A stretch of DNA of 64,000 nucleotides from assembly GCA_963695975.1 (NCBI GenBank), contig CAVOIB010000009.1:26797-90796 (forward strand), in the 5' to 3' direction. Under the pieces are notes generated by a model that did no database searches, was not told the DNA's origin, and worked only from the letters and a program-made list of their open reading frames with translations. Positions 8,805 to 16,837 of the stretch are shown here, piece after piece; positions within the stretch are counted from its first letter, which is position 1, and each line of letters begins with the position of its first letter. Position numbers and translations under genes: made by a program. Source of the stretch: an uncultured Actinomycetes bacterium (GTDB lineage: Bacteria > Actinomycetota > UBA4738 > HRBIN12).

Positions 8805-9223
8805 CCCTTCGCGGGGGTCACCGAGAGCGTCGAACGCGCCCTCGCGAGCACCTGTCCGCGGCCATCGACGACGTCGGCCTCGGCGAAGCCGAGCTGTCGG
8901 CCGACCTTCACCGTTCGTCCTCTGGCGACGATCCGCCCCTGCTTCCCTGGCGCGAGGAACTCCATGCTGAGCTGGACCGTGACGTGCCGCCGCCCGGATC
9001 CCAGGACCGTTCGGACCGCCAGGCCCATCGCGGTGTCGGCGAGCGTGGCGAGCATCCCGCCGTGGATGAGCCCCTGAAGGTTGACGTGCTCGGGCCCGGC
9101 CTCGAGCGCGACCTCGGCGTGGCCCGGCGACGCCTCGACCAGCTCGATACCGGCCCATCGGTAGAACGCCGTGCCCTGCAGCTGTTCTCGCAGGCTCTCG
9201 ACGAGCCCCACCTGTTCATCCAT
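8801..9223 (-). CDS. PaaI/4HBT-family hotdog thioesterase
   Basis: HGGMLATLADTAMGLA motif; 140 aa. Confidence 0.8.
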   Translation of the reverse strand: MDEQVGLVESLREQLQGTAFYRWAGIELVEASPGHAEVALEAGPEHVNLQGLIHGGMLATLADTAMGLAVRTVLGSGRRHVTVQLSMEFLAPGKQGRIVARGRTVKVGRQLGFAEADVVDGRGQVLARARSTLSVTPAKG

Positions 9224-9350
9224 CCGCTCCACCCTCCGGCTGCGTAGTCTCCCACGGGACGTCCGTTTGACGGCCACCATGACCGAAACGCACAATCCGG
9301 TGCGTCCGGGCCTGGGTCGCCCGGTTGGGATGGATAGGAGGGGGAACGTG

Positions 9351-10451
9351 ATGCGCGGACGCATCGTGAGATACCTGGTGCCACTGGCCCTACTCGGGCT
9401 CGTAGCGGCCGCCTGTAGCAATAACAATGACAACGCCGGTGGGGGAGGGAGCGCCAGCAGCAGCGGTCCGGCGTGCAACGCCGACATCAAGGTCGGGGTC
9501 GCCTTCGACGTCGGAGGTCTCGGCGATAAGTCGTTCAACGACGCGGCCAACACGGGCTTGCAGCAAGCGATCGCAGACGGGCTTGTCTGTGATTCCAACG
9601 TGACCGTGAACGAGGCCAATTCGACCGGTTCCGATCGGGACCAGAACGTGCAAGCCCTCGCCGACGCCGGATTCAACCTGGTGGTCGGCGTCGGGTTCGC
9701 GTTCTCGCCCGGCATCAACACCATCGCGCCGGACTACCCCGACACCGACTTCATGGTCGTCGACGGGTACGCGACCTGCGGTAAGGCTTGCGGGCTCGAC
9801 AACGACAACCTCACGAACGTTGCCGACTTCGACTTCAAGGAGCAGGAAGGCTCGTACCTCGTCGGAGCGGCCGCGGCGATCAAGTGTGCGTGCGACACGA
9901 TCGGGTTCCTGGGCGGGCAGACCGGTCCGCTGATCGGGAAGTTCCAGGCGGGGTATATGGCTGGCGCCATGGCCGTGAACCCGAAGATCAAGGTCCTCGT
10001 CGAGTACATCGGTGACGACGTCACCGCGTTCAACGATCCGGTCAAGGGCGAGGCCCTGTCCACCAAGATGTACGACGCGGGCGCGGAGATCATCTACCAC
10101 GCCTCGGGTGCATCGGGTGCCGGACTGTTCAACGCCGCGGTGAAGGCGAACAAGCTCGCCATCGGCGTGGACTCGGACCAGTACCTCACCGCGAGTCCCG
10201 AGCAGCAGCCGCTGATCCTCACCTCGATGATCAAGCGTGTGGACACGGCCGTCTACAACGCCATCACGCAGGTCGGTGACGGAAGCTTCGCGGCTGGAGC
10301 CACGGTCTTGGGTATGGCCGAGGACGGCGTCGACTACTCCCAGTCGAACACCACTCTGATGACGCAAGACATCATCGACCAGCTGGAGGCATTCCGGGCC
10401 AAGATCATCTCGGGCGAGATCGTCGTCCCCGATGACCCCAAGAAGGTCTGA
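9351..10451 (+). CDS. BMP-family (PnrA/Med-like) ABC-transporter substrate-binding lipoprotein, likely nucleoside binding
   Basis: SD AGGAGGG; lipobox LVAAAC; BMP-family motifs. Confidence 0.85.
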   Translation: MRGRIVRYLVPLALLGLVAAACSNNNDNAGGGGSASSSGPACNADIKVGVAFDVGGLGDKSFNDAANTGLQQAIADGLVCDSNVTVNEANSTGSDRDQNVQALADAGFNLVVGVGFAFSPGINTIAPDYPDTDFMVVDGYATCGKACGLDNDNLTNVADFDFKEQEGSYLVGAAAAIKCACDTIGFLGGQTGPLIGKFQAGYMAGAMAVNPKIKVLVEYIGDDVTAFNDPVKGEALSTKMYDAGAEIIYHASGASGAGLFNAAVKANKLAIGVDSDQYLTASPEQQPLILTSMIKRVDTAVYNAITQVGDGSFAAGATVLGMAEDGVDYSQSNTTLMTQDIIDQLEAFRAKIISGEIVVPDDPKKV

Positions 10452-10470
10452 TCCGGGAACGACAGGTCCG

Positions 10471-12006
10471 ATGACGAACGACTCCGGGGCGGGGCGCGGG
10501 AGCGCCCCGCCCCTCGTCGTCCTCGAGCACATCACCAAGCGGTTCCCCGGAGTGCTCGCGAACGACGACGTCTCGGTCGAACTGCGCCCCGCCGAGGTGC
10601 ACGCGCTGATCGGGGAGAACGGCGCGGGGAAGTCCACGCTGATGCGCGTGCTTTACGGGATGTACCCGGCCGACGAGGGCCGGATGATCGTCCGCGGCCA
10701 GGAGGTCAAGATCGCGTCGCCGCGCGACGCGATCGCGCTCGGCATCGGCATGGTCCACCAGCACTTCGTGCTGGTGGACCCGTTCACGGTCACGGAGAAC
10801 ATCATCCTGGGCGACGAGGACGGCGCGGTGCTCGATCGAAGCGACGCCGAACGGAAGGTCCGGGAGCTCGCGGAGTCGTACGGCTTCGTGGTCAGACCGG
10901 ATGCCGTGATCGAGGACCTGTCGGTGGGCGAGGAGCAGCGCGTCGAGATCCTGAAGGCCCTCTACCGCGGAGTGGAGATCCTGATCCTCGACGAGCCGAC
11001 AGCTGTCCTCACGCCGGGCGAGGCCAAGGAGCTGTTCGACAACCTCCGCAAGCTCAAGGAGAGCGGCAAGTCCATCGTGTTCATCAGCCACAAGCTCGAC
11101 GAGGTGCTCGAGATCGCCGACCGGATCACCGTGCTGCGTCGGGGGGCGGTGGTCGGGGAGACGACGCCGGCGCAGACATCGAAGGCCAAGCTTGCCGAGA
11201 TGATGGTGGGCCGGCCCGTGCTGTTCCGGCTAGAGAAGCCAGAGGTGGAGATCGGCGACCCGGTCCTGTCCGTCGAAGGGCTCGAGGGCGGGGGCAAGCT
11301 GCACGGCCTGTCGTTCGAGGTGCGTGCCGGGGAGATCCTCGGTGTGGCCGGCGTCGAGGGCAACGGCCAACGAGAGCTCGCCGAGACGCTGATCGGGCTG
11401 CTTCCCGCGACCGCCGGACGTGTCCTCCTGGAGGGCAGAGATATCGCGGGATGGTCGGTGCGGGACGTGCGGAACGCCGGGGTCGCGTACATACCTGAGG
11501 ACCGGCAGGAGCAGGGACTCGTGCTGTCGATGACGCTCTGGGAGAACACCGTGCTCGGCCGTCACGACGACGCGGAGTTCTCGAGCGGGCTCGGGGTCTT
11601 GTTCATCCGCAAGATCAAGGCGCTCGCCACGAAGCTCGTGGAGCTGTTCGATGTCCGCACCCGCAGCATCGAGGTGACCGCATCGACGCTCTCCGGGGGG
11701 AACCAGCAGAAGCTGATCCTCGCGCGCGAACTCGAGACCGATCCGAAACTGCTCGTGGCGGCGCAGCCCACCCGAGGTCTCGACGTCGGTGCGATCGAGT
11801 TCGTGTGGAAGCAGATCCTGGACCAGAAGGCGGCGGGGCGCGCCGTCCTGCTGATCTCGGCTGAGCTCGACGAGATCTATGCGCTCTCGGACAGGATCGT
11901 CACCATCTACGAGGGGCGGTTGACGGGCGAGTACCCGCCGGATGCTGCGCCCGAAGAGGTAGGCGTAGGGATGCTCGGCGGGATCAAGCAAGAGATTGCG
12001 GGCTGA
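10471..12006 (+). CDS. ABC transporter ATP-binding protein with two ATPase domains (sugar/nucleoside importer type)
   Basis: Two Walker A (GENGAGKST; GVEGNGQRE) and LSGG signatures; alternative start at 10432. Confidence 0.85.
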   Translation: MTNDSGAGRGSAPPLVVLEHITKRFPGVLANDDVSVELRPAEVHALIGENGAGKSTLMRVLYGMYPADEGRMIVRGQEVKIASPRDAIALGIGMVHQHFVLVDPFTVTENIILGDEDGAVLDRSDAERKVRELAESYGFVVRPDAVIEDLSVGEEQRVEILKALYRGVEILILDEPTAVLTPGEAKELFDNLRKLKESGKSIVFISHKLDEVLEIADRITVLRRGAVVGETTPAQTSKAKLAEMMVGRPVLFRLEKPEVEIGDPVLSVEGLEGGGKLHGLSFEVRAGEILGVAGVEGNGQRELAETLIGLLPATAGRVLLEGRDIAGWSVRDVRNAGVAYIPEDRQEQGLVLSMTLWENTVLGRHDDAEFSSGLGVLFIRKIKALATKLVELFDVRTRSIEVTASTLSGGNQQKLILARELETDPKLLVAAQPTRGLDVGAIEFVWKQILDQKAAGRAVLLISAELDEIYALSDRIVTIYEGRLTGEYPPDAAPEEVGVGMLGGIKQEIAG

Positions 12007-13205
12007 TGGCGGCGACCGGGATGGCTGCTCCCGCGACGCTCCCGCGCGTACGGTCCGACTGGCTCGAAAGGGTAGGGGGGCAAGCCTTGGCCCTCGTCGT
12101 CTCCTTCTTGATCGCCCTGGGGCTCGGTTCGCTCCTGATCTTGTCCTACGGAGAGAGTCCCGGACAGGTGTACTCGCAGATCTTCCAGGCGTCGCTCGGG
12201 AACCTGGACGGGTTCGGCTATGTGCTGTCGATCGCCACTCCCCTCATCTTCTCCGCGCTCGCCGTCGCGGTTTGCTTCAAGGGTGGGATGTTCAACATCG
12301 GCGTCGAGGGCCAATACCTCGTGGCGATGGTGACGGCTGCATGGGCTGCCCTCTCGCTCGAGTTCCTCCCCGCCCCGTTGTTGGTGACCGCGATCCTGCT
12401 CGCCGCGATGCTCGGGGGGATGGCCTGGGCCGCCATCCCGGGGATCTTGAAGGTGAAGACCGGAGCCCATGAGGTCGTGACGACGATCATGTTGAACGGC
12501 ATCGCCATCAGCCTGTTGGCGTGGGCGATCAACTTCCCGCTGAAGTTCCACAACGCGCCGCCCGGGCAGAACGTCGACCTGCGTACCGACGAGTTCCCGG
12601 ATCACGGTCTCGTCGGCGACATGGGCAAGGCGTTCGGCATCACGCCGGGCGCCCATCTGTCGTGGCTCCTGTTCCTCGCCATCGCATCGGCGATCGCGGT
12701 CTGGTTCCTCATGCGTCGCATGCGCCTCGGATACGAGGCCCGCGCCCTCGGTTCGTCGCAAGGATCCGCGCGCGCCGGCGGGATCTCGATCGGATCTACC
12801 CAGCTCCGCCTGTTCCTCATCTCGGGAGCTCTGGCCGGGCTGGTGGGGATGCAGCAGTTGCTCGCGGATAAGGGATATCTCGGGCAGAACTACGTAGCTC
12901 AGTTGGGATTCACGGGCATCGCCGTCGCGTTCCTGGGGCAGAACAACCCGATCGGGATCGTCTTCGCGGCGATCCTGTGGGGGATCCTTTCCCGCGGTGA
13001 GGTAGCCCTGCAGATCGGGAGCAACGTTCCTCGCGAGTTCATCATCATCCTGCAGGGGATCTTGATCCTGTCGGTGGTGATCACGTACCAGATCGCGAAG
13101 CGCCGGCTGGCGGCGCGCCAACTCCAGCGTGCCGGTGCGATCGGCGCCCTCGAGGACTCCGAGGCCAGCGTGGATATCGAGGGCATGGCCCAGGAGGGCG
13201 GTTGA
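12006..13205 (+). CDS. ABC transporter permease
   Basis: TGATG coupling to the ATPase gene; polytopic membrane protein. Confidence 0.8.
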   Translation: MAATGMAAPATLPRVRSDWLERVGGQALALVVSFLIALGLGSLLILSYGESPGQVYSQIFQASLGNLDGFGYVLSIATPLIFSALAVAVCFKGGMFNIGVEGQYLVAMVTAAWAALSLEFLPAPLLVTAILLAAMLGGMAWAAIPGILKVKTGAHEVVTTIMLNGIAISLLAWAINFPLKFHNAPPGQNVDLRTDEFPDHGLVGDMGKAFGITPGAHLSWLLFLAIASAIAVWFLMRRMRLGYEARALGSSQGSARAGGISIGSTQLRLFLISGALAGLVGMQQLLADKGYLGQNYVAQLGFTGIAVAFLGQNNPIGIVFAAILWGILSRGEVALQIGSNVPREFIIILQGILILSVVITYQIAKRRLAARQLQRAGAIGALEDSEASVDIEGMAQEGG

Positions 13206-13206
13206 C

Positions 13207-14175
13207 ATGTCACTGACCGACGTCGGCGTAGCGCTGCAGATCTCGTTCACCTACTTCACGATCATCTACCTGACAGGAGTCGGTGGTCTGTTCAGCGAGC
13301 GATCGGGGATCGTGAACATCGGCCTTGAGGGCCTGATGATCATCGGCACGGTGTCCGGAGCGTTCGGTGCCCGCTATTTCACCGACACGCTCGGACTGGG
13401 GCTCCCCTGGGGACCGATCCTCGGCATCCTGACGGGCGCGTTCTTCGGGCTGGCCTTCGCCGGCATCCATGCCATCGCCACCATCACGTTCCGGGTCGAC
13501 CAGATCGTGTCAGGCGTCGTGATCAACCTCGTCGCGATCGGGCTCGCCCGCTTCCTCTCGCAGGCCTTCTTCGGGCAATCGACCCAGTCGGACCCGGGTG
13601 GCCCTCACCTGAGCACCATCAGCGTCCCGCTCCTGTCGTCGATACCGGGTCTCGGGCGCGCCTTCCAGGACCTCTCCCCGATGGTGTTCTTCGCGTTCTT
13701 CCTGGCGTTGCCCGTGTGGTTCGCTCTCTACCGGACCAGATGGGGTCTGCGTCTGCGGTCCTGCGGAGAGAACCCGGAGGCGGCGCGCTCCCTCGGCGTG
13801 CGGGTCTCCGCGTATCGCTACCAGGGGGTGCTCCTTTCGGGGGCACTCGCCGGGATGTCAGGCGCGTTCCTCGCCGCCGAGGTCATCGGCAACTGGCGCG
13901 AGAGTCAGACGCTCGGTCTGGGGTTCATCTCGCTCGCCGCATTGATCCTGTCCAACTGGAACCCGATCCGGCTGATGTTCTTCGCGTGGTTGTTCGGGTT
14001 CGCGGTGGCGATACCGCTGCGGCTCCAGGATGCCCCCGGGCTCAACCTGCTGCCGCCCCAGTTCATCCGCATGATCCCGTACATCGTGACGATCGTGGCG
14101 ATCGCGGGTTTCGTGGGAAAGGTTCGGCCTCCTGCAGCCGCGGGTCGCGCCTACGAGGGTGGCAGCTCGGCGTAG
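13207..14175 (+). CDS. ABC transporter permease
   Basis: Starts 1 bp after the upstream stop; polytopic membrane protein. Confidence 0.8.
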   Translation: MSLTDVGVALQISFTYFTIIYLTGVGGLFSERSGIVNIGLEGLMIIGTVSGAFGARYFTDTLGLGLPWGPILGILTGAFFGLAFAGIHAIATITFRVDQIVSGVVINLVAIGLARFLSQAFFGQSTQSDPGGPHLSTISVPLLSSIPGLGRAFQDLSPMVFFAFFLALPVWFALYRTRWGLRLRSCGENPEAARSLGVRVSAYRYQGVLLSGALAGMSGAFLAAEVIGNWRESQTLGLGFISLAALILSNWNPIRLMFFAWLFGFAVAIPLRLQDAPGLNLLPPQFIRMIPYIVTIVAIAGFVGKVRPPAAAGRAYEGGSSA

Positions 14176-14179
14176 TTCC

Positions 14180-14198
14180 CTAGTCCGTTACAGACTAG
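14180..14198. terminator. Hairpin CTAGTC-n7-GACTAG between convergent genes (candidate bidirectional terminator)
   Basis: 6-bp inverted repeat containing two CTAG sites between the permease stop and the upp stop. Confidence 0.35.
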
Positions 14199-14203
14199 TA
14201 CGT

Positions 14204-14830
14204 TCACTGCGTCCCGTAGAGGCGATCGCCGAAGTCGCCGAGCCCGGGCAGGATGTACGCGTTCGCGTTGAGCTGACGGTCGAGCGCGCCGGCGACGACC
14301 CCCACGTCCGGGTGATCGGTCTCCATCCGCGCGACCCCTTCGGGCGCCGCGACCACGCACACGAACGTGATGTTCCGCGGTCCCGCCTGCTTGATGTAGG
14401 TGGCAGCGGCCGAACCGGATCCACCCGTCGCGAGCATCGGGTCGAGGAGCAGCGCGTTCTTCCCACTCATGGGTGGAAGCTTCGCGTAGTAGTCGCGGGG
14501 GAGGTGGGTCTCCTCGTCCCGTTCCATGCCCAGGTAGCCGACCACGGTGTCGGGATACAGGTCGGTCACGGCGTCGAGGAGACCGAGGCCGGCGCGGAGC
14601 ACGGGGATCGCCACCAGGCCCACGCCGAGCGCGGACCCGGTGATCGGTTCCAGCGGCGTCCGGACCTCGGCCGGGACAACGGGCAGCCCCCGAGTCGCCT
14701 CGACGATGAGGATCGCACCCAGCCGACGCGTCAGCGAACGGAACTCGGCCGGGCCGGTGCGTTCGTCCCGCAGTCTCGTGAGCAGGTCGCCGGCGAGCGG
14801 ATGATCGAGCACGGTCAGCACGGGAGGCAT
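14204..14830 (-). CDS. upp: Uracil phosphoribosyltransferase
   Basis: Full-length UPRTase motifs (LLDPMLATGGS, ILPGLGDFGDR). Confidence 0.9.
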   Translation of the reverse strand: MPPVLTVLDHPLAGDLLTRLRDERTGPAEFRSLTRRLGAILIVEATRGLPVVPAEVRTPLEPITGSALGVGLVAIPVLRAGLGLLDAVTDLYPDTVVGYLGMERDEETHLPRDYYAKLPPMSGKNALLLDPMLATGGSGSAAATYIKQAGPRNITFVCVVAAPEGVARMETDHPDVGVVAGALDRQLNANAYILPGLGDFGDRLYGTQ

Positions 14831-14883
14831 CCTACGTAGAGGTGCTTGTCACCGTCACCGTGCGAGTGGCAGGATGACGACCA

Positions 14884-14937
14884 CATGCGTGACGTGGCGT
14901 ACGGTTCCTTTGCCTACGACGGGCCAAGCCCGGCGTA
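14884..14937 (+). other. Candidate leader peptide uORF (MRDVAYGSFAYDGPSPA, 17 aa) in the DAHP synthase leader
   Basis: Short ORF holding Tyr, Phe and Tyr codons, 29 nt upstream of a terminator-like hairpin. Confidence 0.3.
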
Positions 14938-14965
14938 GTCGCCTGACGAGACGTCACCGACAGCG

Positions 14966-14991
14966 ACCCCGGGCCGGACCCGGGGTTCTTT
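14966..14991 (+). terminator. Intrinsic terminator/attenuator hairpin (CCCCGGG-CCGGA-CCCGGGG then TTCTTTC) 44 bp upstream of the DAHP synthase start
   Basis: Perfect 7-bp GC stem followed by a T-rich tract on the + strand inside a 5' leader. Confidence 0.5.
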
Positions 14992-15034
14992 CATCCCCGG
15001 GCTGCCCGCGGGCCTCGAGGGAACGGAGGACGAG

Positions 15035-16054
15035 ATGGTCGTCGTCATGAAGCACGACGCGACGGAGGCGGACATCGAGGCCGTCGCCGAGAAGGTGCGC
15101 GCCGCGGGCGGCGAGGCCTTCGTGTCGCGAGGAACGGTCCACACGATCATCGGTCTGGTTGGCGACACCGGGCGATTCCAGACGATCCCGTTCAAGCAGA
15201 TGCCCGGCGTCGACCACGTGATCCAGGTCGGCAAGCCCTACAAGATGGTCGCGCGCGACCTGCACCCCGAGACGACCACGGTGAAGGTGGGCACCACGCC
15301 GGTCGGCCGCGACAGCTTCACGATCATCGCGGGTCCGTGCGCCGTCGAGTCCGAGCAGCAAGCGTTCGCAGCGACGCGGGCAGCGAAGGACGCCGGCGCC
15401 ACGATCCTGCGTGGCGACATCTACAAGCCGCGCACCTCGCCGTACTCGTTCCAGGGGCTCGGCGAGCTCGGCCTCGAGATCCTGGGGGAGTGCCGGCGCG
15501 ACACCGGTCTGCCGATCATCGTCGAGGTCGTCGACGTCTCGCAAGTGTCATCCGTCGCCGAGGTCGCCGACTGCATACGCGTCGGGACCCGCAATGCGCA
15601 GAACTTCGAGCTGCTGAAGGAGGTCGGACAGACGAACAAGCCCGTGATGCTGAAGCGCGGCCTGGCGATGACGATCGATGAATGGCTCCAGGCCGCCGAG
15701 TACATCGCGCAGCGCGGCAACTCCGAGATCATCCTGTGCGAACGTGGGATCCGGACGTTCGAGCCGTCCACGCGCAACACCCTGGATCTCGCGGGGATGG
15801 CGGTCGCCCAGGCCGAGACGCATCTGCCGGTGATCGTGGACCCGTCCCACGCGGTGGGGAAACGGCACCTGGTGGTACCGATGGCGCTGGCGGCGGTCGC
15901 GGCCGGCGCGGACGCCGTGATGATCGACGTGCATCCAGATCCCGAGCAGGCCCTCTGCGACGGCCCCCAGGCGCTCACGCCCGACGAGATGATCCTGCTC
16001 GGCCGCGAGCTCGAGGCGGTGGCGTCGGCCGTCGGCCGCCCGGTGAACCACTAG
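15035..16054 (+). CDS. 3-deoxy-7-phosphoheptulonate (DAHP) synthase, type I-beta with an N-terminal regulatory domain
   Basis: KPRTSP, catalytic motifs and a CAVES-containing core; about 75-aa N-terminal extension. Confidence 0.85.
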   Translation: MVVVMKHDATEADIEAVAEKVRAAGGEAFVSRGTVHTIIGLVGDTGRFQTIPFKQMPGVDHVIQVGKPYKMVARDLHPETTTVKVGTTPVGRDSFTIIAGPCAVESEQQAFAATRAAKDAGATILRGDIYKPRTSPYSFQGLGELGLEILGECRRDTGLPIIVEVVDVSQVSSVAEVADCIRVGTRNAQNFELLKEVGQTNKPVMLKRGLAMTIDEWLQAAEYIAQRGNSEIILCERGIRTFEPSTRNTLDLAGMAVAQAETHLPVIVDPSHAVGKRHLVVPMALAAVAAGADAVMIDVHPDPEQALCDGPQALTPDEMILLGRELEAVASAVGRPVNH

Positions 16055-16063
16055 CGAGGTTCA
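16042..16063. terminator. Weak hairpin TGAACC-n8-GGTTCA spanning both convergent stop codons (CTAG in the loop)
   Basis: Inverted repeat overlapping the stops of the 15035 and 16061 genes. Confidence 0.25.
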
Positions 16064-16837
16064 GACGTCGGGCGTCAGCTCGACGATGCGGCACGTGGTG
16101 CGCCAGCGAGTGATCGACTCGGCGGGCGCGCCGGCGCGGCTCTTGCGCTTGTCGGCCAGGACCTTCGCCGCCTCTTCCCATTCCGCGCCCTCGAGCTCTC
16201 GCTGCGCCGCGTAGAACTCCTCGAGCGAGGTGTCGCGAAGCTTCCGGCGCGAGATCACGACGAGCTGGTGGGCGTCCGGGACGCCGGGGATCGTCTGTTC
16301 CTCCGGGCCGGGCTCCTTCTGCGAGAGCACGAGGATCTTGCCGTTCTTGTAGGCGAACCAGGCCGGCGCCATCCGGCGCTTCCCGTTCGGCGCCTCGGTC
16401 CCGATCCAGATCACGTCGGACTTCTTGAGCCCGTCCTCGGTCTCCTTCGGGAGCTTCGTGGGCGCGGTCTGCACGAAGACGGGGATGTCGATCTCACCGA
16501 CGATCTCGCCGTTCAGGATGAACGAGGCCACGAACGTGCCCGTCTCGTCGAACACGGCGTCGTCGATCAGGTCGACCTCGGTGGTGAGGTCCATCGCGCC
16601 GACCATCCGGCGCGCTTCGGGTCCCCAGCGGTAGATCGTGCGGCCCGACGGTCCGATCAGCCGGAACTCCTCGTTCACGAAGCCGGTCGGCACCTTCCAC
16701 GCGCGGAACACGACGAACGGGAGCGCCGGCCCGGGCTGGCCCACCAGGTAGACGCCGTCGTTCGCCTCGTTGCCGTACGCGTCCCAGACGCGCTTGTCCA
16801 CTACGGCTGCCGCGACGAGTTCCCCCACGACCATCAT
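16061..16837 (-). CDS. Conserved hypothetical protein
   Basis: Long ORF with protein-like composition; no family recognised. Confidence 0.5.
   Translation of the reverse strand: MMVVGELVAAAVVDKRVWDAYGNEANDGVYLVGQPGPALPFVVFRAWKVPTGFVNEEFRLIGPSGRTIYRWGPEARRMVGAMDLTTEVDLIDDAVFDETGTFVASFILNGEIVGEIDIPVFVQTAPTKLPKETEDGLKKSDVIWIGTEAPNGKRRMAPAWFAYKNGKILVLSQKEPGPEEQTIPGVPDAHQLVVISRRKLRDTSLEEFYAAQRELEGAEWEEAAKVLADKRKSRAGAPAESITRWRTTCRIVELTPDV

Follow-up and report, generated by a model that had tools for sequence, protein, structure and literature searches.

A conserved candidate leader-peptide attenuator upstream of the DAHP synthase gene in uncultured soil Actinomycetota

Organization of the leader region

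The 64,000-nucleotide (nt) stretch of contig CAVOIB010000009.1 analysed here (assembly GCA_963695975.1, an uncultured Actinomycetes bacterium) is referred to as the window. Positions 14831-15034 of the window form a divergent intergenic space, with the gene upp on the minus strand on one side and a gene for 3-deoxy-D-arabino-heptulosonate 7-phosphate (DAHP) synthase on the plus strand on the other. A candidate leader-peptide attenuator was identified in this space, which comprises a putative promoter, a short upstream open reading frame (uORF) and five G/C blocks, here numbered segments 1 to 4 and block 5. The features are as follows, the U-tract and the Shine-Dalgarno sequence being read directly from the window.

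14204-14830, minus strand: upp, uracil phosphoribosyltransferase (NCBIfam equivalog)
14846-14851, plus strand: TTGTCA, putative -35 hexamer of the leader promoter, located 18 nt upstream of the -10 element
14867-14875, plus strand: putative extended -10 element TG-G-CAGGAT, of the form CAnnAT, with A2, A5 and T6 invariant in 78 leaders
14885-14938, plus strand: leader uORF of 17 codons and TAG, peptide MRDVAYGSFAYDGPSPA, in-frame start kept in 78/78 relatives
14900-14917, plus strand: candidate sensor codons Tyr6 (TAC, 14900-14902), Phe9 (TTT, 14909-14911) and Tyr11 (TAC, 14915-14917) in the aromatic-rich zone of the uORF
14920-14924, plus strand: segment 1, CGGGC, complementary to segment 2 (protector hairpin)
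14928-14933, plus strand: segment 2, GCCCGG, in the last uORF codons, complementary to segments 1 and 3
14928-14974, plus strand: predicted antiterminator hairpin, in which a 2:3 outer stem closes a middle helix and an apical hairpin (-22.9 kcal/mol, z -3.3)
14965-14987, plus strand: predicted intrinsic terminator hairpin, segments 3:4, 9 base pairs (bp), loop CCGGA (-17.9 kcal/mol, z -2.5)
14986-14992, plus strand: U-tract TTCTTTC, 5 U of 7
14995-15001, plus strand: block 5, CCCCGGG, complementary to segment 4 and segment 2, 9 nt past the terminator
15025-15029, plus strand: GGAGG, Shine-Dalgarno sequence of the DAHP synthase gene, whose ATG (15035) follows after 5 nt
15035-16054, plus strand: type I-beta DAHP synthase gene (NCBIfam NF006421, 463 bits), monocistronic, the putatively regulated gene

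In the first-pass annotation of this DNA the uORF was correctly described with its 17 codons, its Tyr, Phe and Tyr codons and its peptide, while its coordinates (14884-14937) were one base too low. Likewise, the 7-bp hairpin CCCCGGG-CCGGA-CCCGGGG had been recognized, although with one C too many in the 3′ arm and at a distance of 29 nt from the uORF, which is 28 nt here; the sequence TTCTTTC indeed follows this hairpin directly. Simple consensus scans of the window leader called neither a sigma-70 promoter, the -10 element matching TATAAT at only three of six positions, nor a terminator. Both were judged to be false negatives of rigid rules, and the terminator was probably missed due to the G-T-extended stem, which consumes the first two T of the tail.

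Conservation of the leader in related genomes and metagenomes

A genome collection was scanned with the window DAHP synthase, which gave 80 loci with protein identities of 78-96%, all from metagenome-assembled genomes (MAGs) of uncultured Actinomycetota and including one probably mis-binned contig. A leader with uORF and hairpin precedes the DAHP synthase gene in 78 of these loci, and the divergent upp neighbour is retained at most of the 80. The 78 non-identical leaders were aligned (alignment A1), and unless stated otherwise counts out of 78 refer to this alignment. A protein homology search gave only close relatives (at least 84% identity). Additionally, metagenomes were scanned with a DNA pattern describing only elements of the leader, namely the uORF end, the stop codon and the hairpin.

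At least 120 metagenome contigs match this pattern. Among the matches listed, a DAHP synthase gene lies directly downstream in all 110 evaluable contigs with a real leader, at 59-99% identity; nine contigs that end at most 91 nt past the hairpin were left out of this count. Since the DAHP synthase gene is found downstream in every evaluable case over this range of identities, the leader is, as far as these sequences can tell, specific to this one gene, and it has been kept despite considerable divergence of the protein. The metagenome set was chosen by an exact pattern and therefore adds no variation in the core blocks. Taken together, the leader was found in about 190 uncultured soil actinobacteria (genomes and metagenome contigs). 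Within the 64-kb window itself there are no further copies of the motif, the inverted repeat CCCCGGG-N5-CCCGGGG occurring once.

The uORF, its reading frame, its aromatic codons and the hairpin are conserved in 78/80 genomes and in the 110 metagenome contigs, a comparison which strongly supports the attenuator interpretation suggested earlier from the window alone.

Some loci of the genome set deviate from the common arrangement. In L041 the whole leader is absent, the gap between upp and the DAHP synthase gene being about 33 nt, and in L061 the promoter and the hairpin are kept and the uORF is deleted, a state in which constitutive termination or a decayed switch would be expected; both loci retain the DAHP synthase gene. 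L069 is labelled as a Planctomycetaceae MAG, yet its upp-leader-DAHP synthase locus is actinobacterial (79% protein identity, uORF MQFTYGFWFFYFGPGPA), and this contig is probably mis-binned. The lone metagenome match without a DAHP synthase gene after it, L148, was rejected because it lies at the 3′ end of a long gene and matches by chance.

The promoter and the leader uORF

In the 78 aligned leaders five of the six positions of the -35 element (TTGnCA) are invariant, and TG often precedes the -10 element CAnnAT, a pattern from which we infer that the two elements act as a promoter. An in-frame start codon, ATG with the exception of one GTG, lies 7-10 nt past the -10 element in 78/78 leaders (9 nt in 62/78). 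Because of this short gap there is no room for a Shine-Dalgarno sequence before the uORF, which is therefore probably leaderless or preceded by a 5′ untranslated region of at most about 3 nt. Leaderless transcripts are common in Actinobacteria (PMC4633059; bioRxiv 10.1101/834739).

A G nearly always follows the -10 hexamer, so that an ATG overlaps it (CAnnATG, window 14870-14877). Only some relatives have this ATG in the frame of the uORF, and it is probably a feature of the promoter or discriminator, not a start codon.

The uORF has a length of 16-18 codons, and its stop codon falls in the same aligned column in all 78 leaders. The genomes contain 69 distinct leader peptides and the metagenomes 97 more, about 166 in all. 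Their consensus is M-Q-x-[FY]-F-G-[FY]-W-F-x-Y-F-G-R-x-P-A, with four to eight aromatic codons that are often tandem. The few, non-tandem aromatic codons noted in the first-pass annotation are thus typical for the sub-lineage of the window and do not hold for the family. Codons for Phe, Tyr and Trp make up 33% of the uORF codons in the 78 leaders, compared to 6.1% in the window genes (binomial probability 8e-181, with non-independent sequences); Phe and Tyr occur in 78/78 uORFs and Trp in 59/78. The aromatic codons are confined to a distinct zone: their share is 26-92% at the positions 6-14 codons before the stop and 0-5% at positions 0-5, with frequencies of 85%, 50%, 92% and 76% at 7, 8, 9 and 10 codons before the stop, respectively.

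One of the codons in this zone is unusual when compared with the window genes. TTT does not occur among the 263 Phe codons of 14 such genes, yet the window uORF uses it at 14909-14911. At 9 codons before the stop TTT is found in 22/78 relatives of several sub-clades (Fisher P = 5e-9 against the window genes, a rough comparison). This codon could be a deliberately slow sensor codon or reflect a constraint of RNA structure.

The 3′ third of the uORF is, judging from its substitution pattern, constrained as nucleotides and not as residues, with third positions frozen in the pairing blocks. Five codons before the stop, Gly is encoded by GGG in 75/78 leaders, while the window genes favour GGC (48%, against 27% GGG), and the Pro codon is CCG in 75/78. 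The codon before this Pro is always xGC, although its residue (position -3) varies between D, G, C and S; the last residue (position -1) varies between A, G and E.

Further regularities were observed at the end of the uORF. The penultimate residue is Pro in 75/78 peptides. The stop codon (window 14936-14938) is TAG in 76/78, TAA in 2/78 and TGA in 0/78 leaders; TGA ends 7 of the 14 window genes. The sequence (G)TC(G/A)CC always follows the stop codon.

Alternative RNA structures

The G/C blocks allow three pairings. Segments 1 and 2 form the hairpin CGGGC-CAA-GCCCG (-8.6 kcal/mol in the window), in which GGG:CCC is pairable in 98.7% across the family, and when the naked RNA is folded prior to the emergence of segment 3, segment 2 has an upstream partner in 77/78 leaders.

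Alternatively, segment 2 (GCCCGG, 14928-14933) is complementary to CCGGGC at 14969-14974 within the 5′ arm of the predicted terminator, so that the antiterminator pairing which had been considered possible from the letters does exist. Its outer helix (alignment columns 99-104 with 142-147) is 96.6% pairable in the 78 leaders, and the edge pair 99:147 is G-C in 53, A-U in 9 and unpaired in 15. When segment 4 was withheld, this outer helix was the consensus in RNAalifold.

The third pairing is that of the terminator arms CCCCGGG (segment 3, 14967-14973) and CCCGGGG (segment 4, 14979-14985), extended to 9 bp by an A-U and a G.U pair. It is 99.4% paired in the 78 leaders. Pair 139:162, which borders the invariant core on the outside, is A-U in 55 leaders and G-C in 21, a compensatory change matched by no shuffle. 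The hairpin follows the uORF stop at a distance of 25-29 nt in the relatives (28 nt in the window), its spacer has 4-8 nt, and a T-rich tail is present after it in most relatives and weak in some, e.g. CCGTTTCGT and TCGTTGCGT.

The terminator and the antiterminator are mutually exclusive, since both use CCGGG (14970-14973) and its neighbours. A multi-partner switch predicts that blocks with two alternative partners each are invariant, but such invariance does not prove pairing.

Two further candidate structures were rejected. A mini-hairpin GGCG-UAGU-CGCC at the uORF stop, indicated by two RNAalifold pairs, is disrupted in leaders with the GTCACC or the CCCGGGG variant. The other, a middle helix shared by the family (columns 110-117 with 134-140), has only 81% of its cells paired owing to a register that differs by sub-family, and is a feature of individual sequences only.

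Dependence of folding on ribosome position

Co-transcriptional folds were calculated for each leader up to segment 3, with the ribosome represented by a mask from -15 to +10, +12 or +14 relative to its aminoacyl site (A-site). The antiterminator is present in 14% of the naked RNAs. With the ribosome at the stop codon or 0-5 codons before it, the antiterminator forms in 0% of the sequences, as against 81-99% when the ribosome is placed 7-10 codons before the stop. This productive zone coincides with the peak of aromatic codons and shifts by one codon with the assumed footprint. In the window, the antiterminator results from a stall at any of the three aromatic codons and never from a ribosome at the stop codon. 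Thus, the position of the ribosome gives attenuator-like behaviour in the simulation of two mutually exclusive structures, in line with what had been proposed for the leader.

Proposed mechanism

At the level of the family, the leader is very probably a ribosome-mediated (leader-peptide) transcription attenuator which controls the monocistronic type I-beta DAHP synthase gene. This is carried by the conserved anatomy of the leader, its codon bias, its alternative pairings and the simulated dependence on ribosome position.

According to this mechanism, transcription would start at the AUG of the uORF or no more than about 3 nt from it, and a ribosome would translate the uORF while RNA polymerase transcribes the next ~100 nt. 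With plentiful Phe-, Tyr- and, in most relatives, Trp-transfer RNA (tRNA), the ribosome would reach the UAG at 14936-14938 and cover segments 1 and 2 as well as the start of the middle helix. Segment 3 would then pair with segment 4 and, together with the U-tract at 14986-14992, transcription would end before the DAHP synthase gene. If an aromatic aminoacyl-tRNA is scarce, the ribosome would stall 7-11 codons before the stop (in the window at TTT 14909 or TAC 14915), covering segment 1 and leaving segment 2 free. Upon emergence of CCGGGC (14969-14974), the free segment 2 would pair with it to give the antiterminator (14928-14974); no terminator would form and the DAHP synthase gene would be transcribed. 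Without any translation, segment 2 would be held by segment 1 and the terminator would form.

Several points weigh against this mechanism, part of which concern the whole family. The start of transcription, leaderless translation, actual termination (to give an RNA of ~105 nt) and the response to amino acids are steps that we infer. Ribosome footprints and minimum free energy (MFE) folding are crude proxies, and equilibrium folds of the full leader prefer the terminator whatever is masked, in 96% of the naked RNAs and in about 70% with stalls. The mean local energy is -29.7 kcal/mol for the terminator state and -26.0 kcal/mol for the antiterminator state. An equilibrium reading of the full leader with ribosome masks was dropped in favour of the folds up to segment 3, as the terminator wins in most cases, and for the same reason the switch must work kinetically, like the trp attenuator. 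Covariation is confined to edge pairs, since the core helices hardly vary, and the shuffle controls of the antiterminator are marginal (23/500 shuffles reach its covariation score), because the rest of the helix never varies. Moreover, the U-tract is imperfect (5 of 7), and in more than 20 relatives it consists of only three to four U and is offset.

The remaining points against it concern the copy in the window. Its uORF has three aromatic codons (Tyr, Phe, Tyr) in 16 and no Trp, and this aromatic content alone gives P = 0.07 against the window's own genes; in addition, the naked window RNA already reaches the antiterminator in the MFE fold. The window uORF has the second-fewest aromatic codons in the genome set, only L071 with two having fewer, and the MFE fold of the whole window leader is uninformative (z = -1.1). 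At the position of the Trp codon (window 14906-14908), the clade of the window has TCC for Ser (window), TTC for Phe (L001) or CGG for Arg (L003, L005, L006 and L008), which suggests that Trp sensing would have been lost in this sub-lineage. The folds indicate that the window copy may be leakier than most relatives. The window copy by itself is not beyond chance and the case rests on the comparison: it is taken beyond chance by the same architecture in 78/80 genomes and 110 metagenome contigs. The confidence in full function of the window copy is somewhat lower than that for the leader family as a whole.

A broader joint reading can be offered as tentative and rather doubtful in its entirety. 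A single leaderless 17-codon uORF might integrate the charging of the tRNAs for Phe, Tyr and Trp and thereby control the single enzyme at the entrance of the shikimate pathway, with its specificity retuned by lineage via codon swaps (Trp to Ser, Phe or Arg in the clade of the window), TTT possibly serving as a hypersensitive sensor codon and block 5 as a further functional element, e.g. a lock on the read-through conformer.

Alternative explanations

It is unlikely that the uORF regulates the gene without intrinsic termination, in such a way that the hairpins act on translation initiation of the DAHP synthase gene by masking its Shine-Dalgarno sequence, on Rho access or on mRNA stability. The weak U-tracts in many relatives would fit this explanation, as would block 5, which is conserved past the termination point (14995-15001), is able to pair with segment 4 and pairs with the Shine-Dalgarno region in some relatives, e.g. 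L029 and L072. In constrained partition-function folds of 76 leaders, however, the Shine-Dalgarno sequence is equally accessible in both states (0.43 vs 0.43), with 12 and 14 leaders shifting in either direction, and the fixed stop-to-hairpin distance of 25-29 nt with a T-rich tail in most leaders is the arrangement that a termination switch requires.

Block 5 is too far downstream to influence termination. A hairpin of segment 4 with block 5 (-14.1 kcal/mol in the window) is 89% pairable across the family; a slid control is equally high, and the 4:5 helix was rejected as indistinguishable from it. A role of block 5 as an anti-Shine-Dalgarno sequence freed by 4:5 pairing was also rejected, as no consistent effect on accessibility was found.

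That the uORF encodes a functional hydrophobic micropeptide, with the hairpin as an unrelated constitutive structure, is very improbable, even though the peptides share the recognisable consensus G-[FY]-W-F-x-Y-F-G. Across the 166 distinct peptides F, Y and W are freely exchanged and the non-aromatic positions vary as well, while the most conserved part of the uORF is kept as nucleotides and not as residues. Moreover, the uORF is always tied to one gene and to a fixed distance from a hairpin that can pair with its 3′ end, and with the gene retained it is lost in L061, as is the whole leader in L041.

Finally, it is extremely improbable that the inverted repeat CCCCGGG-N5-CCCGGGG, which is perfect, invariant, palindrome-like and single in the 64-kb window, is the DNA operator of a transcription factor acting as a roadblock repressor, given that the spacer varies from 4 to 8 nt, that the flanking pair changes in a compensatory, RNA-like manner, that the repeat lies ~80 nt downstream of the promoter and is complementary to two more blocks on the same strand, and that the conserved in-frame uORF would be left unexplained.

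Comparison with known attenuators

The mechanism of the proposed attenuator is textbook, and the leader family itself appears to be undescribed: it was not found in the literature searched. An Rfam cmscan of 14500-15400 at E ≤ 10 gave no amino-acid leader family such as Trp_leader, Phe_leader, His_leader, Leu_leader or Thr_leader and only a spurious small nucleolar RNA match (E 4.3), and an Rfam scan of the whole window at the gathering threshold gave one tRNA only. The main text of the actinobacterial attenuation survey of Seliverstov et al. (PMC1262725) names no aro gene or DAHP synthase, and these are not mentioned in a general terminator survey either (PMC2965389).

Among the precedents, the aroR-aroF attenuator of Corynebacterium glutamicum is the closest; the first-pass annotation had already pointed to attenuation of DAHP synthase genes in Corynebacterium. 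A Phe-Tyr-Phe leader peptide, aroR, is located upstream of aroF (Mentz 2013, PMC4046766; Neshat 2014, as cited in PMC11802643). Both systems, as described there, are actinobacterial leader-peptide attenuators before a DAHP synthase gene, with Phe and Tyr codons at which stalling raises (or here would raise) read-through. By its published description, aroR contains Phe-Tyr-Phe only and reportedly responds to Phe and not to Tyr, whereas the leader presented here has four to eight aromatic codons with near-universal Trp. A further difference is that there is no space for a Shine-Dalgarno sequence before the present uORF. The target genes differ as well: aroF of C. glutamicum encodes a different DAHP synthase subtype and is located in an operon, while the enzyme here is of type I-beta with a ferredoxin-like domain and its gene is monocistronic.

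The enterobacterial trpL and pheL leaders (Rfam Trp_leader and Phe_leader) have the same three pairings, a protector (1:2), an antiterminator (2:3) and a terminator (3:4), and in them, too, segment 1 comes right after the regulatory codons and segment 2 adjoins the stop codon. They differ in having Shine-Dalgarno-led uORFs, in responding to one amino acid each and in controlling terminal-branch operons and not the common entry enzyme. The uORFC-13-1 motif upstream of Acholeplasma aroF is also a predicted uORF with an intrinsic terminator, found exclusively before the DAHP synthase gene (Brewer et al. 2021, PMC8632094); it differs by its occurrence in Mollicutes, low GC content, ribosome binding site, U-run encoding Phe only and 24 representatives (PMC8632094). 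Judged by this description, it looks like an unrelated lineage and sequence.

Amino-acid-sensing uORFs without a Shine-Dalgarno sequence have actinobacterial parallels. The mycobacterial leaderless polycysteine uORFs start at or next to the mRNA 5′ end (bioRxiv 10.1101/834739), and so does the C. glutamicum ilvB leader, which lacks a ribosome binding site, as summarized in a later report (Morbach 2000, cited in PMC4046766). By these accounts, both differ in the amino acids sensed (Cys and Val) and in their target genes. The leader is set apart from its precedents by the combination of all three aromatic amino acids, a uORF without Shine-Dalgarno sequence, a type I-beta target with a ferredoxin-like domain and uncultured hosts.

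No principle would be overturned by this finding. With ~166 distinct leader peptides, a well-populated attenuator family would be added to the small set outside the Proteobacteria, and uncultured soil Actinomycetota would regulate at the RNA level how the shikimate pathway is entered. The natural variants (loss of Trp, rare TTT, loss of the uORF in L061 and of the leader in L041) provide material on the evolution of attenuator specificity, and small ORFs and 5′ leaders would be better annotated in high-GC MAGs.

The regulated gene and its neighbours

Relatives of the window DAHP synthase match Pfam PF18152, a ferredoxin-like N-terminal domain, and PF00793. The N-terminal ferredoxin-like domain is an allosteric domain in related enzymes, and together with an RNA attenuator it would mean two layers of feedback on one DAHP synthase. 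The next gene (16061-16837) is convergent, and the DAHP synthase gene is therefore monocistronic.

Directly upstream of the leader lies a nucleoside-salvage cluster (9171-14830). Its plus-strand genes encode a PnrA/Bmp-type substrate-binding protein, an ABC ATPase and two permeases; upp follows on the minus strand. The start codon of upp (CAT, 14828-14830) is only 15 nt away from the -35 element of the leader, and therefore the promoters of upp and of the leader must overlap.

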